Source of the DNA: Planctomycetota bacterium
Lineage (GTDB): Bacteria; Planctomycetota; UBA8108; JACQVS01
NCBI GenBank assembly: GCA_041569895.1
Contig: JBFFXF010000002.1
Span: forward strand, 1 to 63,576
Length of the DNA: 63,576 nt
Direction: 5' to 3'
Shown: positions 1,048 through 62,806 of the stretch, piece after piece
Layout: every line of letters begins with the position of its first letter
Numbering within the stretch: position 1 is the stretch's first letter
Translations under genes and position numbers: made by a program
Notes under the pieces: generated by a model
What the model saw: only the letters and a program-made list of their open reading frames with translations
What the model was told of the DNA's origin: nothing
The model's database searches: none

Positions 1048-1405
1048 GTCCGTACCCGTCCCCGTCCCCGTCCCCGTACCCGTGCCCGTGCCCGTGCCCG
1101 AAAGGTTACTCGACTTCGCCGGAGAAGAGAACGGGAACGCAGATGACGCAGATTGCGCAGATTACGCAGATCCACGAAGGCCTGGTCGCTGACTCCCTCT
1201 GATCTCCGATCTCCGATCTCGGGTCTCGGGTCTCTGATCTCGGGTCTCGGGTCTCTGATCTCGGAATCGGACGTCGGTATCGGAATCGGAATCGGACATC
1301 GGACTCCGAGTCGGAATCGGCATCGGACATCGGAGTCGGAATCGGTATCGGAGTCGGTCATCGGACTCCGCAACCAGAGCCTTCGAGGACGAGGACGAGA
1401 ACGGG
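1048..1405 (+). repeat. Mosaic intergenic repeat, copy A (P-L-Q-x-D-E-G)
   Basis: P 1048-1100 (about 9 CCCGTN units). Unique linker L 1101-1136. Q 1137-1172 (4 x 9 nt, RCGCAGATN). D 1201-1263 (9 x 7 nt, GATCTCN/GGTCTCN). E 1264-1370 (CGGANT units of 6-7 nt). G 1384-1405 (GAGGAC units). Lies between two minus-strand genes. Confidence 0.9.
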
Positions 1406-1467
1406 TTTTAACCGACGGCAGTCCCCCTCCCCCGGGGCCGCCGCCGGCCGTCGAGCTGCACCTGTCG

Positions 1468-4400
1468 CTACTCGGCGCAGGGTCCGCCGCCGCCGAAGCT
1501 CGGTGCCTCGACGACGTCCGGGCAGTCCTCGACGAGGATGCACGCGGGCTCGCCGTCGACCGCGGTCGGGTGCGGCGCCTGGCCGAGGAAGAGCCAGCCG
1601 AGCTCCGCGATGCCGTCGGAGATGTCGACCTGCCCGTCGCCGTTCCAGTCGAAGAGCGTGACGTTCGCCGGGTGGCTCACGGAGCCGTCGCCGCAGGGCA
1701 GCTCGACCGGGTTGCCGAGGAAGAGGAACCCGAAGAGACAGACCGCGTCGGAGATGTCGACGAGGCCGTCCTGGTTGCAGTCACCGCCGACCTGTCGGCC
1801 TCCCGGCGGCGGGGTCGGGTTGCCGGTGACGCGGACGTTGTCGACCGCCCACCACCAGTCGTCCTGTCCAACCCAGTGGAACGCGAAGACGACGCTCGAC
1901 TGGCCGGCCGCGGTCGGGACCCGGAAGACGCGCCGTGCGAAGAACGGCTCCTCGCCGGTGTCGACGAGGGCGCCGGTCCGGTAGGAGAAGATCGGGTCGA
2001 GGTAGGTCTCGCCGCCGTCGATGCTGACCAGCACCTCCTGGACGTCGCCGCTGACGACGGTCTCCGAGTCCCAGTGGAAGAAGACCTCCGACGCGCCGGA
2101 GAGGTCGAGCTCGGGCGTCACCAGCCACTCGTCCTCGCGCGGGTCCGGGTTGGCGTCCGACTCGAGGATCGCGAAGCCGAGCGACGGCAGGATCTGCCCG
2201 CGGATCTCGCCGGCGCGGAAGTTCTCGCTGTGGATGTTGACGTAGAGGTCCCCCGCCAGCAGGGAGGCCACGTCGACGTCGGCGACCGTGATGGTGCCGA
2301 TCTTCGGACTGCCGGCAGGCAGGGGGTAGAGCACCGGCCCCGGCGTCCCGGCGGGTGCGCGGTGAATGTGCGCGTTGCTCTCCGGAGACGAGAGCCCCTC
2401 GAAGGTGATCTCGTAGGAGAGCTCGTTGGTGTCGGGATCGAAGATGAATCGCGCTTTGCCGGTGGCGTCGGTCTCGACCGGATCCGGAGCCTCCTGCGCG
2501 CCGTCGAGCACCGCGCCGAAGAGGTCGCCGCCGCGGCCGTGCTCGAGCCGGTTGACGGCGCGCTGGTCGACCTGCCCGCGGACGAAGCGCGTGGCCTTGT
2601 CGACCGTGCTCCACGTCTCCGCGCCGGTGTTCGGCGGATCCGCGAGGGAGACGGCGGTCATCGCGCCGAGTCCGGTGTCGAACGATTCCTCGAAGAAGGT
2701 GATCTCGCCACCGGAGGGCGGCGCCACGTCATCGACGATGATGTTGTCGACGCCGATGAACCAGTCGAAGTCGGGCTCGAAGTGTCGCAGGCGGAAGCGC
2801 GCGGTCTGCCCGGCGAACGCCGAGAGATCGATGTCGAGCCGCCCGAAGAAGCCGTCAGCGTTGTCATTGGTCGCGTCGGGCTCGATGTCGGCGATGCCCT
2901 CCATCTCGCCGCACGGATCGCCGTCGCGACGGCACGGGGCGACGCGGCGGAAGACGTTGACCCAGTTGAGCCCGCCGTCGGTCGAGACGTCGACGTCGAA
3001 GACCGCCGTGCCGTTGTTGTTGAGTTGCGCGGTGACGTCCATGTGCAGCCACGCGCCGCCGTCGCCGTCGGGGACGGTGAACTCGGGGCTCCAGAGGTCG
3101 TGCGACATGCCGCTGCCCTGCGCGTTGCTGCCCGACTGCGCGTCCGAGTCGGAGATGACGAACTGACCGGTCGAGGGGCGCCCGTCGAAGGTCGGCGGAT
3201 TGCTCCGGCCGCCGGGGTTGCCGATCGTCCACGTCGAGTCCTCCACCGGGTCGTTCTCGTCCTGGATGAAGTAGCCGGCGAGCTCGAGGGCCGCGTCGCT
3301 CGCGTAGCTCTCGAAGTCGTCCGCGAACGCGACGTTGCCGGTCGAGAGGACGGCGCGGCAGGTGAGCGGACTGCAGTCCGGCGGCGCCGCCGGATCGCTG
3401 AACACCGCGAGCTCGAACTCGAGAATGCCGCCCGTCGCCTGGAGCGTCTCGTCGTCGACCGAGACCGAGAAGCTGCTCGCGTCCGGAGCCAGCGTCTCGA
3501 GCTCGACGCCGTCGAGGAAGAGCTTGAACCCGGCGATGCCGAGGTTGACGCCGGGATCCCAGCTCAGGTCGACGGTCTTGGCGACCTGGTCGGTGCTGCA
3601 GCTCAGGCCGGACGGACAGACGAGGGTGTCGATCTCGTTCGAGACGCACTCGCGATCGGCGCTGCCGCCGATGATCGGCAGAAGCGTGTAGCTGACGTCC
3701 TGCCCGCCCGCCGGGGGCGCGTCGTCGGTGAAAGACGTCGCGTCGGGGCCGAGCTCGGCGACCGTGCGGCCGCCCTGCTCGACGACGTAGCCCTCGGCGC
3801 ACTCCGCGCCGAGCCCGTTCCACGATCCGGTGACCGTGGTGTTGAGCGCGTTGAAGCTGACGCCGAAGCCGCGCAGGCCGCAGTCGCACGGATCGCACAC
3901 CTCGGTCGTGCCGGTGACGATGACGTCGTCGATCGCCCACCACCAGTCGTCCTGGCCGACCCAGTGGAACGCGAAGGCGACGCTCGCCTCGCCGGCCGCC
4001 TCGGGGACCGAGAAGATGCGCTCGGCGTAGTACGGCTCCTCGCCGCGATCGAAGAGGGCGCCGGTGGTGTAGGAGAAGATCGGCGCGCTCTCGAAGGTCT
4101 CGCCGCCGTCGAGGCTGAGCAGGACCTCCTGGACGTCTCCGTTGACCACGGTCTCCGACTTGAAGTGGAGAAAGACCTGGGTGTACGTCGAGAGGTTGAG
4201 GGACGGCGTGACGAGGAACTCGTCCTCGGCCGGATCGGGGTTGGCGTCGGAGTCGAGGATGGCGAAGTCGGGATCGGCGCCCGCGTGGTTCAGCCGGTTG
4301 ACCCCTCTTCCCGAGACCGCGCCGGGCGTGTACCGGCCGCCCTTGTCGGTCGTGTGCCAGGTCTCCGTCCCCGAGTTGCCGGCAGCCGAGACGACGCTCA

Positions 4401-5808: not shown

Positions 5809-5871
5809 GGAAGCCTCCTTCTCCTACCGCTCTCGGGATGGTGCGGCGTGTCTCTCGAACTCTCGAACCCA

Positions 5872-5893
5872 GGCGGCGGAGAGCTCCGCCGCC
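5872..5893. promoter_or_regulatory. Near-perfect 22-nt palindrome/hairpin in the divergent region, just upstream of the TPR gene RBS
   Basis: GGCGGCGGAGAGCTCCGCCGCC: 10 complementary positions on each arm around a central AG. It is preceded by the tandem 8-mers TCTCGAAC TCTCGAAC (5853-5868). Confidence 0.4.
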
Positions 5894-5914
5894 AAGGAAG
5901 CATTGTATCCACGG

Positions 5915-6715
5915 ATGGTCCGGAATGCGGCAAGTTCCCTGAAAGAATCCCGTCGGCTTCCCGGCGGCGGCGCCCTGCGACACGCCGTTGCGATGGTCGC
6001 GCTCGTCGTGCTGGCGCCGATCGGTTGCGGCGAGCATGCCGGATCAACCGCGCCGCTGCCCGCGAAGGACTCCGGCGACCCGCGCGTCGACCGGGCTCTC
6101 GAGCTGATCGCCGCATCGCGTCCGGACGAGGCGAACGTGTTGCTCGAGGAGGTCCTCGATGGGTCCCCGCGCGACGCGCGCGCCCTGCTCTACGCCGGCG
6201 TGGCGCAGCAGCGCGCACAGCGGCCGGCGGCCGCGATCCCGTACTTCGAGAGAGCGCTCGCGCTCGAGGGCGGGCCGCCGGAGATCGATCAGGTCCATCA
6301 CTTCCTCGGCTGGTCTCTTCTCGATCTCGGCCGGCTCGAGGAGGCCCGTCGCGCCTTCGAGCGACACCTCGAGCTGCGTCCCGACGCGGCCGACTCGCAC
6401 TTCGCGATCGGCAGGATCGATCTCGAGGAGGGCGCGCTCGATGCCGCCGCCGTACGATTCCGTCGGGCGATCGAGCTCGACGCCGGGAACCCGCGCCGCC
6501 GGAGCCAGCTCGCCAAGTGTCACGTGCGGCTCGCCGATGTCGCCCTGCTGCGCGATCGGCTCGACGAAGCGCTCGAGGAGCTGCAGCGGGCGGTCGAGCT
6601 CGACCCGCGCATGCACCAGGCGCAGTACCGGCTCCACCGCGTGGCGACGCGCCTCGGACGCGAGCGGGAGGCCGCCGATGCGCTCGCGGCGTACGAGCGC
6701 TGGAGGCCGCGGTGA
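5915..6715 (+). CDS. TPR-repeat lipoprotein
   Basis: I chose the in-frame ATG 5915 inside ORF 5807..6715. It gives MVRNAASSLKESRRLPGGGALRHAVAMVALVVLAPIGCGEH, a lipoprotein-type signal. The rest is TPR-like (ALLYAGVAQQRAQRPAAAIPYFERALAL; HFAIGRIDLEEGALDAAAVRFRRAIELD). The 5807 start would overlap the divergent gene start at 5808. Confidence 0.75.
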   Translation: MVRNAASSLKESRRLPGGGALRHAVAMVALVVLAPIGCGEHAGSTAPLPAKDSGDPRVDRALELIAASRPDEANVLLEEVLDGSPRDARALLYAGVAQQRAQRPAAAIPYFERALALEGGPPEIDQVHHFLGWSLLDLGRLEEARRAFERHLELRPDAADSHFAIGRIDLEEGALDAAAVRFRRAIELDAGNPRRRSQLAKCHVRLADVALLRDRLDEALEELQRAVELDPRMHQAQYRLHRVATRLGREREAADALAAYERWRPR

Positions 6716-8373
6716 GGGGCGCACTGGCCGCCATGCTGCTCGCCGGCGTCGCACTCGCGTGCGCGACGTGGACGTCGTGCGACGCCACGGCGCGGCCGGC
6801 GCTCCACCTCGAGGACGTGACCGGGACGATCGGCGTCGGCGTGACGGTGGTGTCGGGACGCGCGCCATCGTCCGAGATCCTCGAGGTCAAGGGCGGGGGC
6901 GTCGCGCTGATCGACTTCGACTCCGATGGCGATCTGGACGTCTTCGTGCCCAACGGCGCGACGCTCGACGATCCCGAGAGCGGTCCCGGCGCGCGGTTGC
7001 TCGAGAACCTGGGCGGCCTGCGCTTCCGGGACGCGACGGAGGCGGCCGGCATCCGCCTGCGGCGCTGGTCGTTCGGCGTCGCGGTGGGGGACGCCGATGG
7101 CGACGGCCTCGACGACCTCGCCATCGCGTGCTTCGGACCGGACGTGCTCCTGCGCAACGCCGGCGGGCGCTTCGAGGACGTCTCGGCCGACGCGGGGATC
7201 GGCTCTCCGGCGTGGGGGACGAGCTGCGCCTTCGTCGACATCGACAGCGACGGCGACCTCGACCTCTACACGACGAACTTCGTCGAGTTCGACCCGCGGA
7301 GGCCGCCGCCGAGAGGTCGCTACATGGGCGTCGAGGTGATGGCCGGTCCGGCGGGCCTCGCGCCGGTGCACGACGTCCTCCTCGAGAACCTCGGCGACGG
7401 CCGCTTCCGCGACGTCAGCGAGTCGAGCGGCTGCCGCGCCGTGCCGCCCTCGACCGGCCTCAACGTCGTCACGCTCGACATCGACGGCGATGGCCGGCAG
7501 GACATCTTCGTCGCCAACGACTCGATGCCGAACTTCCTCTTCCGCAACCTCGGCGGAGGGCGGTTCGAGGAGATCGGCGCGCGCGCCGGGCTGGCGCTGA
7601 ACGCCGATGGCGCCGCACAGGCCAGCATGGGGATCGCCGTCGGCGACGTCGACGGCAACGGACTCGCGGATTTCTTCACGACCAACTTCTCGAGCGACAC
7701 CAACACGCTGCACGTCAACCTCGACGGCGCGACCTTCGAGGACCGCACCGCGCCGTACGGCCTGGGCATCGCCAGTGGACCCTTCGTCGGCTGGGCGAGC
7801 GCGTTCGCCGACCTCGACCACGACGGCGACGAGGACCTCCTGGTCTTCAACGGGCACGTCTACCCGGAGGCCGCGAGCGGCCTGCTCGACGCGGAGTACG
7901 AGGAGCGCCCGCTGCTCTTCGAGCGCCGCGGACCGCGCTTCGAGCTCGCCCGGCCGGGGAGCGCGGGCGCGTGGCTCGGCGCCCGCTACCGCGCCCGCAG
8001 CGCGGCGCTCGGCGACCTCGACGGCGACGGGGACGTCGACGTCGTCTTCACCGAGCTCAACGGCCCGCTCCACGTGCTGCGAAACGACGCCGCGTCGCGA
8101 GCCGGGTCGGCATGGCTGATCGTCGACCTCGAGGACCGCACCGGAGGCAACCGCCGCGGCATCGGCAGCCGTGTGACGCTCATCGCCGGAGAGCGCCGCC
8201 AGACCCGCTGGATCCACGGCGGCGGCCCGTTCCAGTCAGCGAGCTGGCAGGCAGCGCACTTCGCGGTGCCGAACCCGCCAGCGGAGGCAACCATCGAGAT
8301 CGCCTGGCCGGACGGGAAACCGCAGAGCGCGCGTGTGACGGGGTGGAACAGCAGGATGACCGTCTCGCGGTAG
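6712..8373 (+). CDS. CRTAC1/ASPIC-UnbV family FG-GAP (VCBS) repeat protein
   Basis: GTG 6712 overlaps the TPR gene stop (GTGA); the alternative start is ATG 6733. Signal MLLAGVALACATWTSC. FG-GAP repeats (IDFDSDGDLDVFV, AVGDADGDGLDDLAI, VDIDSDGDLDLYT, LDIDGDGRQDIFV, GDVDGNGLADFF, ADLDHDGDEDLLV, GDLDGDGDVDVVF). UnbV/ASPIC-like C-terminus (GNRRGIGSRVTLIAGERRQTRWIHGGGPFQS). Confidence 0.85.
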   Translation: MRGALAAMLLAGVALACATWTSCDATARPALHLEDVTGTIGVGVTVVSGRAPSSEILEVKGGGVALIDFDSDGDLDVFVPNGATLDDPESGPGARLLENLGGLRFRDATEAAGIRLRRWSFGVAVGDADGDGLDDLAIACFGPDVLLRNAGGRFEDVSADAGIGSPAWGTSCAFVDIDSDGDLDLYTTNFVEFDPRRPPPRGRYMGVEVMAGPAGLAPVHDVLLENLGDGRFRDVSESSGCRAVPPSTGLNVVTLDIDGDGRQDIFVANDSMPNFLFRNLGGGRFEEIGARAGLALNADGAAQASMGIAVGDVDGNGLADFFTTNFSSDTNTLHVNLDGATFEDRTAPYGLGIASGPFVGWASAFADLDHDGDEDLLVFNGHVYPEAASGLLDAEYEERPLLFERRGPRFELARPGSAGAWLGARYRARSAALGDLDGDGDVDVVFTELNGPLHVLRNDAASRAGSAWLIVDLEDRTGGNRRGIGSRVTLIAGERRQTRWIHGGGPFQSASWQAAHFAVPNPPAEATIEIAWPDGKPQSARVTGWNSRMTVSR

Positions 8374-8378
8374 CACTG

Positions 8379-8912
8379 GTCCCGTCCCCGTCCCCGTTCC
8401 CGTCCCCGTTCCCGTGCCCGGAAGAGCTACTCGACTCCGCCGGCGAGCCCTGAAGGCAGATGCACGGCAAGGAAGGCAGGAAGGCAGGAAAGCAGGAAGG
8501 CAGGAAAGCAGGAAGAGAGAAAGGGAACCGAGGACACGGAGCGACAGCGCGGCCGACGTCCGACGAGGACCGGAACGCAGATTACGCAGATTGCGCAGAT
8601 TACGCAGAAGGATGACCCGGGTTTCCGCGTCCTGACCGCTCATCTCGGAGTCGGAATCCGAATCGGTATCGGATTTCGGAATCGGAATCGGAATCGGTGT
8701 CGGACTCGGACTCGGAACTCGGACTCGGTCTCGGATCTCCGACCTCTGATCTCTGATCTCCGATCTCCGATCTCTGACCTCTGATCTCTGACCTCTGTCC
8801 TCCGATCTCTGTCTCAGTCTCGGTCTCCGTCCGACTCGGCCCGCTGTCTCGGTCTCCGTCTCAACTCGGCGGCGCTTCGCTGCGACTCCGGGACCGGGTC
8901 CGGGTCCGGGAC
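8379..8912 (+). repeat. Mosaic intergenic repeat, copy B, long variant (P-L-K-Q-x-E-D-P'-like)
   Basis: P 8379-8420. L 8421-8465. K 8466-8574 (GGCAGGAA 8-mers plus a unique tail). Q 8575-8608 (4 units). E 8644-8734. D 8735-8831 (degenerate). GGGACCGGGTCCGGGTCCGGGACC tail 8889-8912. Fills a convergent spacer and starts 6 nt after the stop at 8373. Confidence 0.9.
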
Positions 8913-8920
8913 CGCGTTTC

Positions 8921-18927: not shown

Positions 18928-18973
18928 CCCGTCCCCGTCCCCGTCCCCGTCCCCGTACCCGTTCCCGTGCCCG
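18928..18973. repeat. Mosaic repeat, copy C (P module only)
   Basis: CCCGTCCCCGTCCCCGTCCCCGTCCCCGTACCCGTTCCCGTGCCCG: 8 units, C-rich on the plus strand. Begins 34 nt after the stop at 18894 and ends 8 nt before ATG 18982. Confidence 0.9.
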
Positions 18974-24708: not shown

Positions 24709-25141
24709 CCGATTCCGACTCCGATACCGATACCGATGCCGATGCCGTTGACAAAACTCGCTGGACGACGCCAAGACGGTCACGGTCACGGTCACGGCAC
24801 ACGGTCCACGGGTCACGGTCCACGGTCCACGGTCCACGGTCCAGGGGTCACGGCCACCGTCCAGGCCAGGGTTGGACCCGTGCTCGTGCTCCGTATCCGT
24901 GTTCCGTCTCCGTTGTCTTTACCGTCGCCGTAAACAGAGAACCGATTCCGATTCCGACTCCGATACCGATACCGACTCCGATGTCCGAGACGGAGGAGCT
25001 GCTTTTGACTTAGGTTCTCCCCAATCTGCGTAATCTGCGCAATCTGCGTTCCCGTTCTCTTCGCCGGCGAAGTCGAGTAACCTTTCGGGCACCGGAACGG
25101 GCACGGGGACGGGAACGGGGACGGGGACGGGGACGGGAACG
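24709..25141 (-). repeat. Mosaic intergenic repeat, copy D (reverse orientation: E'-H-E'-x-Q'-L'-P')
   Basis: E' 24709-24747. H 24778-24866 (GGTCAC and ACGGTCC units). E' 24942-24987. Q' 25023-25048 (3 units). L' 25049-25086. P' 25087-25141 (G-rich on plus). The reverse complement of 25042-25092 equals 1094-1144 with one mismatch. Confidence 0.9.
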
Positions 25142-26665: not shown

Positions 26666-26735
26666 CTCGTACTCGTCCTCGTCCTCGTCCTCGATCCCGT
26701 CCCCGGTCCCGGTCCCGTGCCCGGCCCCGTGCCCG
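26666..26735 (+). repeat. Mosaic repeat, copy E (G'-P)
   Basis: G' 26666-26694 (CTCGTC units) starts immediately after the stop at 26665. P 26695-26735 (CCCGTCCCCGGTCCCGGTCCCGTGCCCGGCCCCGTGCCCG). Convergent spacer. Confidence 0.85.
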
Positions 26736-26829: not shown

Positions 26830-27255
26830 CTACCCGGGAACGTCCTGAACGCGGATCACGCTGGAAGCGAAGGGCGTCTGCTCCAGCGCGTTGCACAACC
26901 GCTCGTCGCCGGTCACCAGGCGTCCATTGAGGGCCAACGCCAGTGCGACGTAGAGGCTGTCGTAGACGGTGCGCGAGACGTCGACGGCCAGCTCGAGAGC
27001 AGCATCCAGGAGCGGCGGAGACGGATGGGATTCGAGCGGTACAGCACTCAGAGCTCGAAGAATCGACCGCGCCTCGGCGTCACTCAGTTCGCCCCGGACT
27101 ACCTTCTTCCACAGGATATTGCCGAACTCCGGAAAGAACAGATCCGGTACGTGGAGGTCACGGCCATGATCCAGGAGTCGAGCGGCGAATCGAGAGTGGA
27201 TCTCGGGCACATACCACTTCACTCCGACGCTCGCGTCCACGACGAGGCAGCTCAT
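26830..27255 (-). CDS. vapC: Type II toxin, PIN-domain ribonuclease VapC family
   Basis: ORF track, 141 aa. MSCLVVDASVGVKW... has the N-terminal acidic PIN residue. Also ...TVYDSLYVALAL... and ...LVTGDERL. The ATG overlaps the stop of the upstream antitoxin gene (ATGA). Confidence 0.85.
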   Translation of the reverse strand: MSCLVVDASVGVKWYVPEIHSRFAARLLDHGRDLHVPDLFFPEFGNILWKKVVRGELSDAEARSILRALSAVPLESHPSPPLLDAALELAVDVSRTVYDSLYVALALALNGRLVTGDERLCNALEQTPFASSVIRVQDVPG

Positions 27256-27482
27256 CGCGTTCGATCATCCGCCAACAGCTCCGCGCTGTCCGTGTGTTTG
27301 CGACCCGCCAGCTTCTTGCGGATGCGCTGAGCCAGTCCTCGAGCTCTCGACATGTCCACTCGCGAGGCCCGCTCCAGAATGTCCCTCAGCTCGGCTTCCA
27401 GCGACCGACCATGGGCGCGAGCTCGCTTCTTGAGGTTTTCGAGGACCTTTCGATCGACGTCTCTCACAAGTACCTGGGCCAT
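27252..27482 (-). CDS. vapB: Type II antitoxin, ribbon-helix-helix (FitA/VapB-like)
   Basis: ORF track, 76 aa. MAQVLVRDVDRKVLENLKKRARAHGRSLEAELRDILERA is an RHH pattern. GGAGG lies 6 nt upstream of ATG 27482. Confidence 0.8.
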   Translation of the reverse strand: MAQVLVRDVDRKVLENLKKRARAHGRSLEAELRDILERASRVDMSRARGLAQRIRKKLAGRKHTDSAELLADDRTR

Positions 27483-27519: not shown

Positions 27520-27536
27520 GCTATCATAATGATAGC
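27520..27536 (-). promoter_or_regulatory. Candidate vapBC operator: perfect 8-1-8 palindrome overlapping a -10-like hexamer
   Basis: GCTATCAT-A-ATGATAGC, about 40 nt upstream of the vapB ATG. On the minus strand it contains TATGAT (27528-27523). The local sequence is visibly AT-richer than its surroundings. Confidence 0.5.
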
Positions 27537-29068: not shown

Positions 29069-29098
29069 GATGCTCTCCAGGATGATCTCGGGTCAGAA

Positions 29099-29134
29099 TC
29101 GACGCAGAGTCGACGCAGAGTCGTCGACGCAGAG
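29099..29134. repeat. Three copies of the 11-mer TCGACGCAGAG in a divergent promoter region
   Basis: Copies at 29099-29109, 29110-29120 and 29124-29134. They lie 31-66 nt upstream of GTG 29068 (minus-strand gene). The ACGCAGA core resembles the Q unit ACGCAGATT. Confidence 0.8.
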
Positions 29135-29270
29135 AGCCGACTCGGCGGCATGCCGGCTCATTGTACCGGCGCGGCGATCAAAGGGAACTCCGGGGGACTC
29201 CCTTGATCCGTCGTGCGGGCTCGAATAGACTGGCGCAGCCATTGAACATGGGGAGCACGGAGAGCGCGAC

Positions 29271-33219: not shown

Positions 33220-33394
33220 TCGTGCTCGTGCTCGTCCTCGATCCGCGTTCGACACCGAGACCGATTCCGATTCCGACTCCGATTCCGATGACCGATTCCG
33301 ATGTCCGATACCGATTCCGACTCCGATACCGATACCGAGTGGGTAGGACTCTCTCTCAATCTGCGTCATCTGCGTTCCCGTCCTCGTCCTGCGG
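33220..33394 (-). repeat. Mosaic repeat, copy F (reverse orientation: G'-x-E'-x-Q'-GGGAAC')
   Basis: G' 33220-33240. E' 33261-33337. Q' 33358-33374 (2 units). 33375-33394 is the reverse complement of CCGCAGGACGAGGACGGGAA. No P module. Confidence 0.85.
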
Positions 33395-34396: not shown

Positions 34397-35139
34397 GACG
34401 GCACCTCGATGCCGAGCGCCGCGAGCTCGCGCGTCGCCGCCTCCGCCCAGCCGCGGTTGGCGGCGGGGCTCTGCGGGCTCGGGTGGAGGACGCGCCCGAT
34501 GGAGAACGGCAGCCCGTCGAGCGCGGCGCGAGCCCTCGACTCGGCGAAGTTGCCCACCCCGACGACGAACCGCGGCGCGGTCGCCTCGATGCTCTCGCGC
34601 AGAGCGGCGTCGCAGATCTCGAAGAGCCGATCGCGCGTCGTCCGCGGCAGCTTGTCGGGCGTCCGGTTGCGGCCCGATGCCTCCATGAAGACGAGCGGGC
34701 AGTAGTTCAGGATGAAGAAACGGCTGAAGAAGCGCCGCGGCGTCTTGAAGCGCTCGCGCGCCCAGCCCCAGAGCCGCGCGCCGCTGACCTCGCTGCGCGG
34801 ACAGTCGAACCCGAGCACCGGCCGCTTCGGGTGCTCGCGGGGCGGCTTCCCGACCCGCCCGCGAACTCCGAGCCAGTCACGCACCAGCGCCACCTCGCCG
34901 AACGGCACCCCGGTCTGCGCCATGCCGAACGGCCCGGGGTTCATCCCCACGAGCACCGCCTCGCACCCGCGGCGCGCGTGACGGCGGATGTAATCCTCGT
35001 GCGCCTCGCGTGCGTAGACGAGCGGGTTGTAGACGTAGGCCACGGGCGCGGAAAAGCGAAGCGATGCGAGCTGGCGGGTGAGCTTGCGGGAGATGGCGAT
35101 GAGCTGCTCGTTCACGTCAGGCACCGTTCGTCTGTCCAC
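34393..35139 (-). CDS. SMUG1-type (family 3) uracil-DNA glycosylase
   Basis: ORF track, 248 aa (GTG 35139; the exact start is uncertain). VLVGMNPGPFGMAQTGVPFGEVALVRDWLGV, HPKRPVLGFDCPRSEVSGARLWG and LHPSPQSPAANRGW closely match the conserved SMUG1 motifs I remember from animal SMUG1. Confidence 0.88.
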   Translation of the reverse strand: MDRRTVPDVNEQLIAISRKLTRQLASLRFSAPVAYVYNPLVYAREAHEDYIRRHARRGCEAVLVGMNPGPFGMAQTGVPFGEVALVRDWLGVRGRVGKPPREHPKRPVLGFDCPRSEVSGARLWGWARERFKTPRRFFSRFFILNYCPLVFMEASGRNRTPDKLPRTTRDRLFEICDAALRESIEATAPRFVVGVGNFAESRARAALDGLPFSIGRVLHPSPQSPAANRGWAEAATRELAALGIEVPS

Positions 35140-35338
35140 GTTCCCGTTCCCGGAATACCGAAGAGAAGACTCATGAGGAAGGCAAGAAACGCCAGGAAAG
35201 CAGGAAACGGATGGACTGATGGGGTTGCTCTTCGTGAGCGCCTCGCCTCTCGGGGAGTCCTCGAACCGACGTGGGACATCCGAAGCAGAACACCCAAACC
35301 CGCTTCCTGCCCTCCTCTTCCTCCTGATTTCCTCATGA
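35139..35338. repeat. Mosaic repeat, copy G (short P, K-like block and inverted K-like block)
   Basis: CGTTCCCGTTCCCGG 35139-35152. Purine-rich K-like block 35176-35210. Pyrimidine-rich inverted block 35300-35334. A perfect 10-bp inverted repeat, TCATGAGGAA (35171-35180) / TTCCTCATGA (35329-35338), overlaps the stop codon at 35333-35335. Confidence 0.7.
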
Positions 35339-41606: not shown

Positions 41607-41658
41607 CCCGTGCCCGAGGATTCGGGAACGGGAACGGGAACGGCAACGGGTACGGGGT
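41607..41658. repeat. Mosaic repeat, copy H (short P facing P')
   Basis: CCCGTGCCCG (41607-41616), AGGATTC, then GGGAACGGGAACGGGAACGGCAACGGGTACGGGG (41624-41657). The two arms are complementary with one mismatch (potential hairpin). The G-rich array ends 4 nt before ATG 41662. Confidence 0.85.
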
Positions 41659-43088: not shown

Positions 43089-44729
43089 ATGGCGACGACG
43101 GCCGCCGACCTCCTTGTCGCCGAGCTCCGGGATCGCGGCGTTCCATTCGTCGCCACGCTGAACGGGCACGGGCTCGATCCCTTCTACGTCGCGTGCCGTC
43201 GCGGCGGCATGCGCGTCATCGACGTTCGCAACGAGCAGGCGGCGAGCTACATGGCCGAGGTCGCCGGCCGACTCAGCCGTTCTGTCGGCGTCTGCGCCGT
43301 GAGCGGTGCGGTCGCCCACGCCAACGCGCTCTCCGGCGTGCTCAACGCGCATCTCGACGGCGCCCCCATGCTCCTGATCACCGGCATCACGCCGATCGCC
43401 CGTCTCGGCCTGGGGGACTTCCAGGATTTCGACCCGGTGCCGATGACGCGGCCGATCACCAAGCTGTCGCGGGTCATCAGCACGCCCGAGAGTGTGGCGC
43501 GCATCGTCCACGATGCGTTCGTCGCGGCCACCACGGGGCGTCCCGGACCGGTGCACCTGGCGCTGCCGCTCGACGTCGCGGAGGCGCAAGTCGACCCGTC
43601 CCGCGTCGTGCGCTCGCGGGTGCGCTCGGGCGCCGTGCGCATCGACGACGCCGGGGATCCGGGGCTCGTGGTCGAGGCCGTCGAGCTGCTCCGCGAGTCG
43701 CAGCGTCCGGTCCTCGTCGCCGGGAGCGGCGTCCACTATGCGCGCGCCGAGAGGGAGCTCGCCAGCTTCATCAGGCGGCAGGAGATTCCCGTGGTGGTGC
43801 CGATCTGGGATCGCGGCAGCATCGCGACGCCGTTGCACGCGTTTCTCGGCGTCGTCGGTGCGGCGTCGGGTTCGGCGGAAATCCTCCCGGATGCGGACTT
43901 CGTGCTGCTCCTCGGCGCCGAGCCCGACTACCGGGTCGGGCAGTTGCAGCCGCCGATCGTCTCCCGCGATGCGAAGGTCGTTCGCGTTCACACCGATGAG
44001 GGACGCCTGCGAAGCGGCCTCGAGGCGGACGTGAGCATCCAGGGCTCGCCGCGCATGGTGCTGCGCGAGCTCGAGGAAGCCTGCGAGCAGCTCGACTGCC
44101 CCCCGGCGACGGCCTGGCTCGAGGAGGCCCGCGCGCGCCGCGATCAGTTCCGCCAGCGGTGCCGCGCATCGGCGGACAAGCTCTCGCCCGGCATCACCGG
44201 TCGCGACGTGGTGACGTCGATCCAGGTGATGCTCACCGACGACACCGTGCTGCTGGTCGATGGCGGCAACATCGGACAGTGGTTCCACCAGTTGCTCCCG
44301 GACCGCTATCCGGGCCACTGGGTGACGTGCGGCGCGAGCGGCGTCGTCGGCTGGGGCGTGCCCGGCGCGATGGCCGCCCGGGCGCTCCATCCCGAGCGCC
44401 CGGTGATCCTGCTCTCGGGTGACGGCTCGTTCACGTTCACGGTCGCCGAGCTCGAGTGCGCCGCGCGCCAGGGCCTGCCCTTCGTCGCGGTGATCGCCGA
44501 CGACGAGCAGTGGGGCATCTCGCTGACGGGCCACGTCGCGCGCTACGGCGCCCCGCTCTACAGCACCCTCGGCCCGACCCGCCTCGACCTCGTCGCCGAG
44601 GGCCTCGGCTGCGCCGGCATGCGCGTCGAGAACAAGGAGGAGCTCGCCCCGAGAATCCGCGAGGCCCTCTCCCTCGACCGCCCGGCAGTGATCCAGGTGC
44701 CGATCGTGCCGGGTGGTCCCCGCGGTTAG
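43089..44729 (+). CDS. Thiamine pyrophosphate-dependent enzyme (acetolactate synthase large subunit-like family)
   Basis: ATG 43089 inside track ORF 42657..44729, 5 nt after the ALDH stop. MATTAADLLVAELRDRGVPFVATLNGHG...NEQAASYMAEVAGRL. TPP motif LLSGDGSFTFTVAELECAARQGLPFVAVI. Confidence 0.88.
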   Translation: MATTAADLLVAELRDRGVPFVATLNGHGLDPFYVACRRGGMRVIDVRNEQAASYMAEVAGRLSRSVGVCAVSGAVAHANALSGVLNAHLDGAPMLLITGITPIARLGLGDFQDFDPVPMTRPITKLSRVISTPESVARIVHDAFVAATTGRPGPVHLALPLDVAEAQVDPSRVVRSRVRSGAVRIDDAGDPGLVVEAVELLRESQRPVLVAGSGVHYARAERELASFIRRQEIPVVVPIWDRGSIATPLHAFLGVVGAASGSAEILPDADFVLLLGAEPDYRVGQLQPPIVSRDAKVVRVHTDEGRLRSGLEADVSIQGSPRMVLRELEEACEQLDCPPATAWLEEARARRDQFRQRCRASADKLSPGITGRDVVTSIQVMLTDDTVLLVDGGNIGQWFHQLLPDRYPGHWVTCGASGVVGWGVPGAMAARALHPERPVILLSGDGSFTFTVAELECAARQGLPFVAVIADDEQWGISLTGHVARYGAPLYSTLGPTRLDLVAEGLGCAGMRVENKEELAPRIREALSLDRPAVIQVPIVPGGPRG

Positions 44730-44743: not shown

Positions 44744-45010
44744 TCCCGTCCCCGTCCCCGTCCCCGTTCCCGTCCCCGTTCCCGTTCCCGTTCCCGTTCC
44801 CGTGCCCGTGCCCGGTCCCGTGCCCGGTCCCGCCGACGCTCCGAAGAACATCCACAGATTACGCACATTGCGCAGATAAAGGAAAGCCGTTCGCACCGAC
44901 TCGGCGTCTGTGTCAGAATCGGTATCTGTCATCGGTATCTGTCATCGGAATCGGAGTCGGAATCGGACTCGGAATCGGAATCGGAATCGAGGACGAGGAC
45001 GAGGACGAGA
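44744..45010 (+). repeat. Mosaic intergenic repeat, copy I (P-L-Q-x-E-G)
   Basis: P 44744-44832 (15 C3-4 tracts, the longest P). Degenerate Q 44854-44878 (ACAGATTACGCACATTGCGCAGATA). E 44916-44989. G 44988-45010. Starts 15 nt after the stop at 44729. Confidence 0.9.
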
Positions 45011-52717: not shown

Positions 52718-53150
52718 TCCGATCCCGGTCCCGGACCCGTGCCCGATGAGGCAGCTCGACGCCGCTGGCGAGTTTTGACGGCAGACAACGGCAAGGAAGG
52801 CAGGAAGGCAGGAACGCAGGAAGAGAGAGACTGGAGAAGCGCATCCCACAGCGCGGAAGCGCGGTCGACGAACGACGAGGACGGGAACGCAGATTGCGCA
52901 GATTGCGCAGATTGGCGCAACGGTCGACTCGAGTGAACCCATCCGAGTTCTCTGACCGCAGCATCGGAATCCGAATCGGAATCGGATCTCGGAGTCGGAT
53001 CTCGGAGTCGGAATCGGAGTCGGTGTCGGTATCGGAGTCGGTATCGGTTCTCTGTCTCTGATCTCTGTCTCTGTCCCGGACCCACTCCGACCCGAAGGTC
53101 GATCGAGGACGAGGACGAGCTCGGGAACGGGAACGGGAACGGGAACGGGA
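52718..53150 (+). repeat. Mosaic intergenic repeat, copy J, long variant with inverted P ends (P-L-K-Q-x-E-D-x-G-P')
   Basis: P 52718-52745. L 52746-52789. K 52790-52886. Q 52887-52913 (3 units). E 52961-53046. D 53047-53076. G 53104-53120. P' 53123-53150 (GGGAAC x4). This is the only copy in a divergent (start-to-start) spacer. Confidence 0.9.
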
Positions 53151-54381: not shown

Positions 54382-55613
54382 GAGCGCTTCTGCTGGTGAT
54401 TCCGATCGTCGTGCTCGCCGTCGACGCGCTCGAGGGCGGGGACTGGCCGCAGTTCCGGGGACCGGGGAGCCGCGGCGCGGCCACCGGCGCGGATGACCGC
54501 GAGGGAACGCTGCCGCTGACTTGCGATGGCGACAGCGTCGCCTGGCGGAAGCCGCTGCCCGGGCGCGGGCTCTCGAGCCCGATCGTCGTCGGTGGCCGCG
54601 TCGTCGTCACTGCCAACAGCGGCGCCAGGCAGGACCGCCTGCACGTGCTCTGCCTCGACGCCCGCTCCGGCGACCAGATCTGGGAGCGACAGTTCTGGGC
54701 CACCGGCATGACGCGCTGCCACCCGAAGACCTCGATGGCCGCGCCGACGCCGGTGTCGGACGGCGAGCGCATCGTCGCGCTGTTCGCGTCGAACGACGTC
54801 GTCTGTCTCGACCTCGACGGCAACCTCCTCTGGCTGCGCGGGCTCAACAGCGACTACCCGCAGGCGTCGAACAGCGTCGGCATGGCGTCCTCGCCGGTGC
54901 TCGCCGGGGACACCGTCGTCGTGCAGCTCGAGAACGACAGCGACTCGTTCGCGGCCGGGCTCGATCTCGGGACCGGCGTGAACCGCTGGAAGATCTCGCG
55001 CCCCGCCTCGGTCAACTGGTCGTCACCCGTCGTGCTGGCGCATCCGGTCGCGGACAGCGGCGGCCCGGCCACGGTCGTCCTGCAGTCGACGCGCAAGGTC
55101 ACCGGGCACGATGCGCGCACCGGCCGCGAGCTGTGGGCCTGGGCGGAGCCGTGCAAGGGAATCCCGTCGTCGCTCGCGGCGGACAACCTCCTCTTCGTGC
55201 CATCCGACGGGCTGACGGCGTTGCGCCCTCTGGCGAACGGCGATCCGGAGATCCTCTGGCGCTCGCCGCGGCTCCGGACGACGACGGCATCGCCAGTCCT
55301 CTATCGCGGCCGCGTCTACGTGCTCACCGGCGATATCCTCAAGTGCGCCGAGGCCGGGGCCGGCGGGCTCTCCTGGCAGTTGCGGCTCGAGGGCCCGTTC
55401 AGCAGCACGCCGGTCGCCGCCGGCGGCCACCTCTACCTCTTCAACGAGAAGGGGCTGTGCCAGGTGGTGCGCGTCGACGTCGAGGAGGGCGGCAAGGGCG
55501 AGGTGGTCTCGAGGAGCGACATCGGCGAAACCATCCTCTGCACCCCCGCGATCGCCGGCGGCGCGATGTTCGTGCGCAGCGATCGGTCGCTGTGGCGCAT
55601 CTCCCGGCGCTGA
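54378..55613 (+). CDS. PQQ-like beta-propeller repeat protein, secreted
   Basis: ATG 54378 overlaps the upstream stop (ATGA), inside track ORF 53862..55613. MRALLLVIPIVVLAVDA, then WPQFRGPGSRGAA. Propeller blades. Confidence 0.85.
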   Translation: MRALLLVIPIVVLAVDALEGGDWPQFRGPGSRGAATGADDREGTLPLTCDGDSVAWRKPLPGRGLSSPIVVGGRVVVTANSGARQDRLHVLCLDARSGDQIWERQFWATGMTRCHPKTSMAAPTPVSDGERIVALFASNDVVCLDLDGNLLWLRGLNSDYPQASNSVGMASSPVLAGDTVVVQLENDSDSFAAGLDLGTGVNRWKISRPASVNWSSPVVLAHPVADSGGPATVVLQSTRKVTGHDARTGRELWAWAEPCKGIPSSLAADNLLFVPSDGLTALRPLANGDPEILWRSPRLRTTTASPVLYRGRVYVLTGDILKCAEAGAGGLSWQLRLEGPFSSTPVAAGGHLYLFNEKGLCQVVRVDVEEGGKGEVVSRSDIGETILCTPAIAGGAMFVRSDRSLWRISRR

Positions 55614-55615
55614 AT

Positions 55616-55682
55616 CGTTCCCGTTCCCGTCGGAGTTGGTCTCCGACAGCTCATCGCGGACGAGGACGAGGACGAGGACGAG
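55616..55682. repeat. Mosaic repeat, copy K (short P, hairpin, G)
   Basis: CGTTCCCGTTCCCGTC 55616-55631. 7-bp stem hairpin GTCGGAG-TTGGT-CTCCGAC 55629-55647. GAGGAC units 55658-55682. Convergent spacer. Confidence 0.85.
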
Positions 55683-55698
55683 TCGGGACCCCGCCCGT

Positions 55699-57577: not shown

Positions 57578-57578
57578 G

Positions 57579-57798
57579 CCCCGTCCCCGTTCCCGTTCCC
57601 GTTCCGGTCCTCGAGGGCGCTGGTTGCGGAGCCCGATGACGGATTCCGATACCGATGACCGATACCGATGACCGATACCGATGACCGATTCCGACTCCGA
57701 TCGGAGTCGGATCTCGGAGTCGGATCTCGGAGTCGGGGTCGGAATCGGAGTCGGACTCGGCATCCGACCAAGCACGACTCCGCCTCCTCCCGTCCCCG
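57579..57798. repeat. Mosaic repeat, copy L (P, then E' facing E as a long palindrome)
   Basis: P 57579-57606. E' 57632-57700 and E 57701-57766 form inverted arms with a perfect 22-bp palindromic core, TCCGACTCCGA|TCGGAGTCGGA (57690-57711). Short CCCGTCCCCGTC at 57789-57800. Convergent spacer. Confidence 0.9.
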
Positions 57799-59403: not shown

Positions 59404-59436
59404 CAAGCTCTCCTTTTACAGGACGTGTGTGCGCCG

Positions 59437-61452: not shown

Positions 61453-61613
61453 ATTCCCTTTCCTTTCCGGGAGTGATCTCGGGATGGGCAGTCGCTGGGG
61501 GTGGCGGCGGGGAGCGAACGGCGCAGGGGCGCGGGTCGTCTCGCGGAGAGACCCGTTGAACGAGGTGGAGACATGAACATCGTCACGACACACCTCCTTG
61601 GCCGTTCCGGCGG

Positions 61614-61638
61614 GGAAAAATGCGCCCCGGGGGGGCGA
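61614..61638 (-). terminator. Intrinsic-terminator-like hairpin plus U-run inside the PFOR 5' leader (attenuator or end of a short RNA?)
   Basis: The minus-strand RNA reads CGCCCC-CCC-GGGGCG followed by CAUUUUUCC. It is preceded directly by a 7-bp hairpin GACCGGC-CAGGUAC-GCCGGUC. It lies about 35-60 nt downstream of the predicted promoter and about 165 nt upstream of ATG 61452. Confidence 0.35.
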
Positions 61639-61679
61639 CCGGCGTACCTGGCCGGTCAGAACCCGCCGACTAGCAGGGC

Positions 61680-61708
61680 ATTCTATGAGATGCAAGGGTC
61701 TGTATCAA
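61680..61708 (-). promoter_or_regulatory. Sigma70-like promoter candidate for the split PFOR operon
   Basis: On the minus strand: TTGATA (61708-61703), a 17-nt spacer, then TAGAAT (61685-61680). This implies a 5' leader of roughly 220 nt. Confidence 0.45.
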
Positions 61709-61753
61709 CGACCAAACCCCTGTCGGCACCGGCCCCTTGGGGCCTCCCGGCTG

Positions 61754-61782
61754 TCGACCTGCCGCTCCCAACGGCCTATAAT
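61754..61782 (+). promoter_or_regulatory. Sigma70-like promoter candidate for the FAH-family gene
   Basis: TCGACC (61754-61759), a 17-nt spacer, then TATAAT (61777-61782). GGAGGAG follows 6 nt before ATG 61820. Confidence 0.45.
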
Positions 61783-61819
61783 ACTCGCTCCGCATTCGAG
61801 CAGCCCGGAGGAGCCGACC

Positions 61820-62626
61820 ATGAGGATCATCCGTTTCCTGGACGACCGGGGACACCCCCGTTACGCGGCGCAGTCGAAGGGCGGCGCGGCCCGCCTGATC
61901 GAGGGGGATATCTTCGGCGAGTTCTCGGTCACCGACCAGACGGTCGACATCGACAGCCCCCTCGCCCCGGTCACACCGCCGGCGATCCTCTGCATCGGGC
62001 TCAACTACCGGCTCCACGCCGAGGAGTCGGGGAGCAAGGTGCCGGAGCACCCGGTCGTCTTCCAAAAGAACGTCAACGCCGTCCAGAACCCGGGCGACCC
62101 GATCGTCCTGCCCCGCCACCTGCGCAGCGACCAGGTCGACTACGAGTGCGAGCTCGCGATCGTCATCGGCAAGCGCTGCAAGAACGTCCGGCGTGACGAC
62201 GCATTCGACGTCATCCTCGGCTACACCTGCGCCAACGACGTCAGCGCCCGGGATTGGCAGATCGCGCGCGGCGGCGGTCAGTTCTGCAAGGGGAAGGGAT
62301 TCGACACCTTCGCGCCGCTCGGCCCCTTCGTCGTCACCGCCGACGAGATCACCGACCCGAACTCGCTGCGCATCCGCACCGTGCTCAACGGCGAGGTGAT
62401 GCAGGACTCGAACACCTCGGACATGATCTTCGACGTCCCGGCGCTGGTCGAGTTCCTCACCGGCAGCACGACGCTCGAGCCCGGCACGGTGATCCTCACC
62501 GGCACCCCGAGCGGCGTCGGTTTCGCCCGCAAGCCCCCGGTGCTCCTCAAGTCCGGCGACGAGGTGACGGTCGACATCGAGCGCATCGGCTCACTGACAA
62601 ATCCCGTGGTCGACGAGACCGCCTGA
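61820..62626 (+). CDS. Fumarylacetoacetate hydrolase (FAH) family protein
   Basis: ATG 61820 inside track ORF 61598..62626. MRIIRFLDDRG. ...ILCIGLNYRLHAEE. ...DYECELAIVIGKRC. ...FCKGKGFDTFAPLGP. ...LTGTPSGVG. Confidence 0.9.
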   Translation: MRIIRFLDDRGHPRYAAQSKGGAARLIEGDIFGEFSVTDQTVDIDSPLAPVTPPAILCIGLNYRLHAEESGSKVPEHPVVFQKNVNAVQNPGDPIVLPRHLRSDQVDYECELAIVIGKRCKNVRRDDAFDVILGYTCANDVSARDWQIARGGGQFCKGKGFDTFAPLGPFVVTADEITDPNSLRIRTVLNGEVMQDSNTSDMIFDVPALVEFLTGSTTLEPGTVILTGTPSGVGFARKPPVLLKSGDEVTVDIERIGSLTNPVVDETA

Positions 62627-62806
62627 TCCGTTTCCCGTCGAGAGCGCGGCCGACGGACGACGGGGACGGGAACGCAGATTACGCAGATTGAGAAACGATC
62701 TGCCTCGCGTCTTGCGACTCTGTTCTCGGATCTCCGGTCTCTGTCTCTGACCTCGGAGTCGGAATCGGTCATCGGAATCGGACCGAGAACGAGGACGAGG
62801 ACGAGA
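62627..62806 (+). repeat. Mosaic repeat, copy M (vestigial P, K tail, Q-x-D-E-G)
   Basis: GTTTCCCGTC right after the stop. K-tail-like GCGCGGCCGACGGACGACGGGGACGGGAAC 62644-62672. Q 62672-62689 (2 units). D 62723-62755. E 62756-62781. G 62790-62806. Convergent spacer. Confidence 0.85.

Follow-up and report, generated by a model that had tools for sequence, protein, structure and literature searches.

Dispersed mosaics of short tandem repeats in the intergenic DNA of a probable planctomycete

The stretch of bacterial DNA analysed here (the window: 63,576 nucleotides (nt), comprising 5,108 intergenic and 58,468 coding bases) contains a family of dispersed non-coding mosaic elements, which are chains of short tandem arrays joined by short unique linkers. 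Its 13 loci are designated r1 to r13. Whole units have been gained and lost by the arrays between genomes of 99.7–99.9% identity, and the homology of the linkers shows that the copies are related by descent. Taken as a whole, the family is probably a lineage-specific mosaic of slippage-prone repeats, organized like bacterial interspersed mosaic elements (BIMEs) or BOX elements, that the host tolerates, or makes use of, at the ends of transcription units. A function at these boundaries, to which the placement and structure-forming potential of the elements point, is proposed here only tentatively.

Using Tandem Repeats Finder and direct reading, we recovered the arrays reported in an initial annotation of this DNA at all 13 loci. 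A pattern representing the array type Q (CGCAGATKRCGCAGAT) has 13 matches in the window compared with 0.00 expected by chance; the corresponding numbers are 39 and 0.05 for array type E (TCGGANTCGGANTCGGA), and 54 and 0.13 for array type P (CCCGTNCCCGTNCCCG). All of these matches are intergenic. Since the counts far exceed the expected values of 0.13 or less, chance is excluded as the source of the arrays. With a detector set to periods of 6–9 nt and at least three units, tandem repeats cover 32% of the intergenic bases and 1.4% of the coding bases. The 13 loci have a summed length of 3,035 nt, about 59% of the window's intergenic DNA, and their arrays run head to tail and are longer than expected by chance, as in long simple sequence repeats. 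The initial description, that of a non-coding, modular and mosaic family in which unit number, module presence and orientation all vary, is thus borne out.

Modules, copies and common descent

The units of the arrays are as follows; L is the unique linker, and primes mark inverted arrays.

P: CCCGTN (GTCCCC in another register), a C-rich end array
K: GGCAGGAA, followed by a unique tail; long subfamily
Q: RCGCAGATT, with the prefix GGAAC (GGGAAC in r1, r6 and r13)
D: TC followed by TCGGA, TCCGA or TCTGA; core TCGGA
E: TCGGA followed by N
G: GAGGAC (G', GTCCTC), an end array
Heptamer: ACGGTCC, 13 units at 24776-24863
13-nt compound units (6 + 7 nt): several, among them TCGGAGTCGGATC, CCGATACCGATGA and ATCGGTATCTGTC; at 24885-24913, 44918-44952, 57646-57694 and 52976-53023

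The heptamer and the 13-nt compound units were absent from the initial annotation. The seven modules that it listed are all present but are not independent of one another, G resembling inverted P, and D and E sharing the core TCGGA. There is only a one-base difference between G' (GTCCTC) and P (GTCCCC); because GAGGAC is therefore nearly the complement of P, the ends of the elements are inverted hexamer arrays. They are explicit, as P and P', in r2, r8 and r10, and take the form of P and G in r1, r9, r11 and r13; they are arrays of variable length rather than fixed terminal inverted repeats. As a result of this inversion the C-rich strand points into the element at either end, and the G-rich strand toward the flanking gene. 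The arrays also contain TCCGA, the complement of the core TCGGA, so pairing of D with E or of E' with E is possible. Higher-order periods occur as well, of 21 nt in D and of 25 and 31 nt in E.

The copies are arranged as follows.

r1, 1048-1405, plus strand: short subfamily; P, 8.5 units (1050-1100); L (1108-1122); GGGAAC and Q, 3.9 units (1137-1171); a spacer with a CTGAC motif; D, 10 units (1197-1265); E, about 17 units (1261-1372); G, 3.3 units (1384-1403). The P' end lies 18 nt from an aminotransferase ATG (1029, minus strand)
r2, 8379-8912, plus strand: long subfamily; P, 6.7 units; L; K, 5.8 units (8470-8515), and unique tail; Q, 3.8 units (8575-8608); E, 13.7 units (8645-8728); D, 12.6 units (8729-8815); inverted P-like array (TCCGGG), 4.7 units (8887-8914). 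Between convergent genes with stops at 8373 and 8921
r3, 18928-18973, plus strand: P only, 7.7 units; the stop at 18894 is 34 nt before it and the next start codon about 12 nt after it
r4, 24709-25141, minus strand: short subfamily, reversed; P, 9.3 units (25141-25086); L with the palindrome CTTCGCCGGCGAAG; Q, 3 units (25049-25023); then, in minus-strand reading, E, 7.7 units; 13-mer, 2.2 units; ACGGTCC, 13 units (24863-24776); E, 6.5 units. The P' end lies 18 nt before the ATG of an FGGY kinase gene (25160)
r5, 26666-26735, no strand assigned: G' (CTCGTC), 6 units, then P, about 7 units; directly after the FGGY kinase stop (26665)
r6, 33220-33394, minus strand: reversed; GGACGAGGAC-GGGAAC; Q, 2 units; E, 13-15 units; G-like array (GAGCAC), 3.5 units. 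Flanked by an alpha/beta hydrolase stop (33452, minus) and a 3-keto-disaccharide hydrolase start (33187, minus)
r7, 35139-35338, plus strand: degenerate fragment of the long type; P, 2.5 units, adjoining a uracil-DNA glycosylase start (35139, minus); degenerate K, 3.8 units (35176-35207); diverged tail
r8, 41607-41658, no strand assigned: mini hairpin of P, 2 units, a 6-nt loop and P', 5.7 units; ends 3 nt before an aldehyde dehydrogenase ATG (41662)
r9, 44744-45010, plus strand: P, 14.8 units (44744-44832); degenerate Q, 3 units (about 44853-44877); 13-mer (ATCGGTATCTGTC), 2.7 units; E, 7.7 units; G, 3.7 units. From the stop of a thiamine pyrophosphate (TPP)-enzyme gene (44729) to a GFO/IDH oxidoreductase start (about 45047)
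r10, 52718-53150, plus strand: long subfamily; P, 4 units; L; K, 3.8 units (52794-52823), and tail; Q, 3.4 units (52888-52919); E, 13.8 units including 13-mers; D, 4.3 units; G, 2.7 units; inverted P' (CGGGAA), 4.8 units (53122-53150). The sole copy in a divergent region, with two unique flanks and a sigma-70-like site in the left one (52704-52676, minus)
r11, 55616-55682, plus strand: mini element; P, 2.5 units; short palindrome GTCGGAGTTGGTCTCCGAC; G, 4.2 units; convergent stops at 55613 and 55699
r12, 57579-57798, plus strand: P, 5.3 units; E' (13-mer CCGATACCGATGA, 3.8 units, 57646-57694) facing E (13-mer TCGGAGTCGGATC, 57701-57764), the two making a long imperfect hairpin; then CCTCCTCCCGTCCCCG. 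Occupies the whole space from one convergent stop (57577) to the other (57799)
r13, 62627-62806, plus strand: degenerate P, 2 units, directly after the stop at 62626; unique pre-Q tail homologous to the tails of r2 and r10; GGGAAC and Q, 2 units (62672-62689); D, about 5 units; E, 4.8 units; G, 3.8 units. Between convergent genes
Possible relative only, 29094-29136, plus strand: 11-nt array (GACGCAGAGTC), 3 units, with the Q-like core CGCAGA; in a divergent region without an element, shortly before the start of a PQQ_2 gene

The order P-L-[K]-Q-...-D/E-G had been called conserved. It holds for the seven large copies that bear Q (r1, r2, r4 reversed, r6 reversed, r9, r10 and r13), except that D and E change places, D preceding E in r1 and r13 and following it in r2 and r10. 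The full module set does not extend to 18928-18973, 26666-26735, 41607-41658 and 55616-55682, where only the end arrays, P and/or G, are found.

The unique parts of the elements connect the copies with one another. From L to the pre-Q segment r1 and r4 are nearly identical, with only a few differences before the Q array begins; r2 and r10 can be aligned end to end, at roughly 80%, over P, L, K, the tail and Q; and the CTGAC motif in the spacer is common to r1, r2 and r10. Common descent follows from this homology of unique linkers and spacers between copies. The same comparison divides the family, at the level of sequence, into two subfamilies: a short one (r1 and r4) and a long one with K (r2, r10 and the fragments r7 and r13). 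Separate growth of microsatellites in each intergenic region from mutational bias, yielding copies without a common ancestor, is by comparison highly improbable. Slippage is demonstrably active and the units are simple and mutually related, as such growth would have it, but L, the K tail, the pre-Q segment and the CTGAC spacer are common to copies in the same order, and a gradient of P unit variants is common to the arrays. Independent birth of each array is contradicted by the linker homology. The copies may have spread by mobilization in trans via the inverted end arrays, or by recombination or template switching between the arrays of different intergenic regions.

In the P-array gradient, CCCGTC is outermost, CCCGTT or CCCGTA comes next, and CCCGTG stands beside linker L (1055-1100, 8381-8420, 18928-18973, 25086-25141 and 44745-44832). 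Being common to the arrays, it suggests that P arrays grow at their outer end and are copied as structured blocks. Linker L contains a GC-rich palindrome, perfect in r4 (CTTCGCCGGCGAAG, 25059-25072) and imperfect in r1 (1109-1122), r2 (8430-8443) and r10 (52755-52768), which could be a protein site or a small hairpin.

Whole-unit variation between related genomes

The arrays are reproduced in three metagenome-assembled genomes (MAGs; GCA_041613875.1, GCA_041567935.1 and GCA_041609175.1) and in the Logan unitigs of five sequencing runs, all of which contain the same organism. These independent assemblies and unitigs are 99.7–99.9% identical to the window, and each copy that they cover is present; r8 is unchanged in an assembly that is only 98.5% identical over that stretch. 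The overlapping stretches differ by seven distinct indels, six of which are whole units inside arrays (7, 6, 6, 6, 12 and 13 nt).

8755-8761: 7-nt D unit in r2, missing from two other assemblies
18952: CCCGTACCCGTT added (two more units) in r3, in one related assembly
26826: 3 nt, outside the arrays (the seventh indel)
33219: extra GCACGA unit in r6, in three other assemblies
55658: extra GGACGA unit in r11, in one related assembly
57598: extra CCCGTG in r12, in one related assembly
57646: extra 13-mer CCGATACCGATGA in r12, in one related assembly

Substitutions number zero in the elements compared with about 20 distinct ones in the coding sequence, when contig L099 and the start of contig L121 are left aside. 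The gain and loss of units would result from replication slippage, the standard mechanism for such repeats. Because independent data agree and the indels are whole units, an assembly artefact is excluded, and slippage is at work over the time in which strains diverge. The idea of an artefact, or of coding sequence for repetitive peptides, can safely be dismissed: short-read unitigs do break within P arrays, but the structure is the same in three MAG assemblies and in five read sets. No reading frame survives periods of 7, 8 and 13 nt or indels of whole 7- and 13-nt units (the initial annotation had already excluded coding from the mixed periods), and the called genes finish before the arrays.

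Contig ends are found at or inside P arrays: unitigs L102 to L106 all end at 57602, within the P array of r12, and L123 ends at 18953, L121 starts within P' near 25104, and L099 stops some 130 nt short of the P array at 44744. Since the short-read contigs and unitigs tend to end in this way, the repeats probably limit the assembly contiguity of the lineage. The identity of L099 to the window is only 98.5% because the last 270 nt of its alignment (window 44345-44612) diverge strongly; they hold about 60 of the 76 mismatches, and the remainder is about 99.7% identical. The 3' end of the TPP-enzyme gene, beside the longest P array, may have recombined or diverged here, or the contig end may be chimeric.

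Distribution and comparison with known repeats

One module of the mosaic has relatives in several phyla. In contigs representing one genome per species, the pattern GGAACGCAGATKRCGCAGAT was found at 98 or more loci (at least 98), and the hosts among the matches listed include Bacteroidota, Chloroflexota, Methylobacter, Elusimicrobiota, Nitrospirota, Planctomycetota and other groups. There the Q-type motif is one arm of a hairpin of 80-300 nt (for example, L095 2558-2649, L012 6276-6381 and L072 1840-2135), and 53 of the 98 loci listed have an inverted partner at a distance of 60-300 nt. The arm consists of AAT-GGAAC and four tandem units of about 9 nt (CGCAGAT NN), with GAT at offsets 8, 17, 26 and 36. 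This hairpin is intergenic in 38 of 40 evaluable loci, and no neighbouring gene recurs among the 98 loci listed. The Q arrays of the window fit the arm consensus, with the same GGAAC prefix, the same layout of four 9-nt units and GAT at offsets 8, 17, 26 and 35-36. They differ in their setting: the cross-phylum hairpin is simple, whereas Q in the window is embedded among other arrays, and no window element has an inverted Q' partner. Window Q thus corresponds to an arm of the cross-phylum hairpin without its partner, and is not private to the mosaic element.

Rfam gave no genuine match for the cross-phylum Q loci (sets of 18 and 8), and the hairpin has no match in the literature searched. A phage or plasmid origin was rejected, the Q pattern having no match in viral contigs, and neither element r2 nor a typical Q hairpin having one among PLSDB plasmids. 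Slippage affects the cross-phylum family too, since the 3' arms of two metagenome copies of one Q hairpin (L112 6761-6900 and L115, the same locus reversed) differ by exactly one unit of 9 nt (TCCTCTGCG). In other planctomycete contigs there are intergenic hairpins with arms built of tandem 7-9-mers that are quite unlike these in sequence, namely GAACCACAAAGACACAAAGG, GGACCGCGAACGAGCGCGAAT, GGAACACTCATCGACACTCATCG, ACGCAAAGG/ACGCAGAGG, GTGTTCCGG and TTCCAGG (L072 about 1900-2050; L006 near 2450-2650; L073 300-340; L111 6350-6545; L110 5672-5760 and 21136-21335). This suggests that hairpins with tandem-repeat arms may be a general architecture rather than one sequence family.

The rest of the mosaic has a much narrower distribution. 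A combined P and L pattern had no match in the metagenomes of the Joint Genome Institute, a P'-Q junction pattern matched five loci that are all ordinary Q hairpins, and none of about 110 foreign loci has a P or E pattern. The arrays are also absent beside orthologous genes in relatives at 71-75% protein identity, including the two closest of the relatives examined at one orthologous gene. Within the searches made, neither the mosaic itself nor its P, E, D and G arrays turned up outside the organism of the window, and both appear to be lineage-restricted. A literature search gave no description of such mosaics in planctomycetes. G-patterns are over-represented in Isosphaera pallida (PMC4060949), so related arrays may exist in cultured planctomycetes.

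As in the initial annotation, the elements are assigned neither to CRISPR nor to the BIMEs, nor, on the description of their modules, to BOX. Rfam had no match in the window at the gathering score and none at E<=1 within the elements, the one chance hit at E<=1 lying inside a gene. CRISPRs have direct repeats of about 23-55 nt and unique spacers of similar length; here the units are 6-13 nt long and run head to tail without spacers, and Pfam scans found no Cas domain in the approximately 35 window proteins. BOX elements of Streptococcus pneumoniae are intergenic and non-coding and have the structure boxA-(boxB)n-boxC, with modules of 45-59 nt and unique sequence. The likeness to BOX drawn in the initial annotation is apt for the organization, an order of modules with fixed ends and a variable count in the middle. 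The present modules are, however, microsatellites with units of 6-13 nt and belong to another phylum, and on this comparison by description they are set apart from BOX. Miniature inverted-repeat transposable elements (MITEs), such as the Correia elements, are, like the present elements, small, non-coding and dispersed in both orientations, and they are bounded by inverted ends. Unlike MITEs, the present elements show no target-site duplication in a reading of their flanks and no parent insertion sequence in the window, and their ends are arrays of variable length.

The unit of repetitive extragenic palindromic (REP) sequences is an imperfect palindrome of 20-40 nt with a GTAG or CGTC head, linked to REP-associated tyrosine transposases (RAYTs). 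No recurrent palindromic unit of 20-40 nt was found here, the inverted-repeat search giving only pairing of array with array, and CGTC in P occurs only as part of the hexamer. With the REP and BIME sequences of enterobacteria and pseudomonads the elements share an extragenic position at gene 3' ends or within operons rather than at promoters, a mosaic of few motifs in variable number and orientation, and the capacity to form hairpins, and termination, mRNA stability and supercoiling have been proposed as roles of REP/BIME sequences (PMC3733652). The difference lies in the unit, which here is a direct repeat of 6-13 nt without such a palindrome.

Closer parallels are found among G-rich and long simple sequence repeats. 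Rehm et al. (2015, PMC4692102) describe intergenic repeats that form G-quadruplexes (G4s), with the units GGGAATC in Xanthomonas and GGGGA(C/T)T in Nostoc, the latter being STRR1 of the cyanobacterial short tandemly repeated repetitive (STRR) sequences. Such repeats (PMC4692102) resemble the present arrays in their short G-rich units with at least four G-tracts, non-coding bias, scarcity between divergent genes, position within tens of bases of gene ends, unit number that varies widely among close relatives, and lack of a link to gene function. The units themselves are alike, P' GGGGAC resembling GGGGACT and E CGGAATC resembling GGGAATC. The G-rich strand there is the coding strand after stops and the non-coding strand before starts and reads away from the nearest gene (PMC4692102), whereas here it reads toward it in 13 of 14 arrays; moreover, those repeats are single arrays, whereas here hexamer arrays make up the two ends of a mosaic that also has other arrays and unique linkers. 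Long simple sequence repeats with units of 5-11 nt (Mrazek 2007, as summarized in PMC4679880), the TAACTGA repeats of Beggiatoaceae, Cyanobacteria and Bacteroidetes (PMC4679880) and the cyanobacterial STRR heptamers are likewise head to tail, mostly intergenic, scattered over phyla, variable through slippage and, according to that summary, unexplained in function. They have one unit per array, whereas here six or seven unit types are chained in order and copied as a block. Since intergenic arrays that are G4-capable, avoid divergent regions and vary in unit number have already been described, the novelty lies in the mosaic arrangement and not in the arrays as such.

Placement at gene ends and possible functions

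The gene map was based on gene calls on overlapping public contigs and checked by G+C content at third codon positions (GC3) and Pfam. Elements occupy 12 of the 13 intergenic regions of >60 nt that include the 3' end of a gene, and one of the six that are purely divergent (Fisher p=0.003). The element-free exception with a gene 3' end is the promoter/operator region of a toxin-antitoxin pair of the PIN and ribbon-helix-helix (RHH) types, and the element-free divergent regions are ordinary unique sequence. The distance from array to stop codon is 0-16 nt in most cases, and arrays end 0-18 nt before five start codons. In phase-variable contingency loci the repeat sits within an open reading frame or between the -35 and -10 boxes, where unit number turns a gene on or off; here all arrays lie outside open reading frames, and the neighbouring genes encode ordinary metabolic or secreted proteins. 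Canonical G4 motifs (at least four G-tracts of at least three Gs, with loops of 7 nt or less) number 11 in the window; all are intergenic, 10 of them coincide with P arrays, and the coding sequence, 58 kb in all, has none. In 13 of 14 P-type arrays it is toward the nearest gene that the G-rich strand reads (p=0.002), a polarity that follows from the inverted ends of the elements.

In the reading that we favour, tentatively as to function, the elements would be tolerated, or made use of, at the ends of transcription units. A polymerase that passes the stop codon would meet a G-rich, G4-capable template strand and produce a C-rich transcript, and would then encounter the self-complementary TCGGA/TCCGA arrays, which would fold into hairpins. 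The element might thus serve as an untranslated boundary, a pausing site or a 3'-end structure, much as has been suggested for REP/BIME sequences, and unit number would tune the boundary effect between strains. It counts in favour of this reading that canonical intrinsic terminators, GC-rich hairpins with a U tract after them, are not available to end the genes adjoining the elements: they are not in excess in the window (5 and 7 sites compared with 5.8 and 6.0 expected), with only two weak matches in elements. Sigma-70 promoters are not in excess in the window either.

Several observations weigh on the other side. A functionless element that is selected against in promoters would avoid divergent regions just as well. 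The purine-rich side faces three gene ends, and the orientation of Q relative to transcription is not fixed. Folding is barely better than that of dinucleotide shuffles (z = -0.6, -3.0, -2.3 and +0.1), these scores being weak because shuffles of such composition fold equally well. Loading of Rho by C-rich arrays after stop codons was rejected as a general rule, the mean skew of C over G being +0.03 at 18 gene ends (p=0.70). No target-site duplication was seen by eye in the flanks of any copy and no transposase was found among the window proteins in Pfam scans, so mobility is unproven, and no copy shows presence/absence polymorphism among four assemblies. Finally, the data cover 63.6 kb of one genome and the overlapping contigs.

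Much of this would suit a selfish or neutral MITE-like element, with P and P' as terminal inverted repeats, that is mobilized in trans, has no host function and drifts by slippage, its placement reflecting merely selection against insertion into genes and promoters. Such an element would be dispersed in copies with homologous linkers, inverted end arrays and both orientations, would avoid divergent regions, would give weak structure signals and a failed skew test, and would be missing from the closest relatives examined, as is the case here. It is nevertheless the less likely account, though a serious one: target-site duplications, a transposase encoded in the window and insertion polymorphism among the four assemblies are all lacking, and the copies fill gaps and adjoin stop codons rather than lying at random spots in unique intergenic DNA.

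A polar bidirectional terminator or insulator is rather unlikely. In this case P or G' in the transcript would load Rho, or a template-strand G4 would block the polymerase, and transcription leaving the element toward a gene start would be unaffected. The association of the elements with gene 3' ends, the arrays adjoining stop codons, the consistent G4 polarity (13 of 14) and the lack of an excess of intrinsic terminators are as would be expected. However, the polarity follows automatically from the inverted ends and so adds little independent support, the skew of C over G after stops is not significant across all gene ends, and six copies or fragments lie between co-directional genes, with an array 0-18 nt from the downstream start in five. 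Because the array adjoins the start in such pairs, termination there would silence the downstream gene, unless the element holds a promoter.

A bolder version is doubtful. Here the elements would be an undescribed bacterial 'punctuation', cassettes of sequences prone to non-B DNA at the ends of transcription units that give a polar stop or insulation, are tuned by slippage and are linked through Q to the hairpins shared by Bacteroidota, Chloroflexota, Planctomycetota, Proteobacteria and other phyla. Such cassettes would combine self-complementary TCGGA arrays and the purine-rich arrays K and G with G4/i-motif end arrays that always face the flanking gene, and the wide sharing of Q would imply a conserved host or mobile-element factor that recognizes CGCAGAT arrays.

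Very unlikely, finally, are arrays of protein-binding or modification sites, whether for a nucleoid protein, a GANTC or GATC methyltransferase, or an RNA-binding protein of the CsrA type titrated by GGA in K, E and G. GANTC is found in every E unit and GATC in many D units, the periods of 21 and 31 nt are close to whole helical turns, and linker L has a palindrome. Against this, GGA is on one strand only, yet the elements occur in both orientations relative to transcription, and no candidate protein was identified. The depletion of GANTC in genes seen under a Markov model was rejected as evidence of methylation or restriction at GANTC or GATC: it is gone under synonymous-codon shuffling (observed/expected 1.06), and since it vanishes once codon usage is controlled, no GANTC-specific system is indicated.

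If the family extends genome-wide, about 5% of the genome and most of its non-promoter intergenic DNA would be a hypervariable repeat mosaic. This would account for the breaking of short-read assemblies at gene boundaries (unitigs and MAG contigs end in P arrays) and would provide ready markers for strain typing. It would also be a natural test system for G4-capable or hairpin arrays as ends of transcription units, in a phylum about whose terminators and promoters little is known. The polarity opposite to that of the G4 repeats of Xanthomonas and Nostoc is a concrete, testable contrast, and the cross-phylum GGAAC-(CGCAGAT)4 hairpin, missing from Rfam and the literature searched, merits a census of its own.

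The host is probably an uncultured high-GC bacterium of the Planctomycetota. The G+C content of the window is 69%, and Pfam scans of the approximately 35 window proteins revealed a gene set typical of planctomycetes, with DUF1501, DUF7133 with HEAT repeats and cytochrome c, 3-keto-disaccharide hydrolase, PQQ_2 propellers, FG-GAP/ASPIC, dockerin and CotH domains. The best named matches of the aldehyde dehydrogenase are planctomycete MAGs at 75% identity, and the search for relatives of this protein found no close cultured one; for these two reasons we infer the phylum rather than observe it. No tRNA or tmRNA gene was found in the window. The toxin-antitoxin pair mentioned above consists of a PIN-domain toxin (26830-27255) and a FitA-like RHH antitoxin (27252-27482), both on the minus strand, and the palindrome GCTATCATAATGATAGC upstream (27520-27536) is operator-like in appearance. 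CTAG occurs once in 63.6 kb compared with about 55 occurrences expected, and GGNCC (z about -13) and CCNGG (z about -10) are rarer in genes than in synonymous-codon shuffles. CGNCG, TCGA and GATC are enriched.

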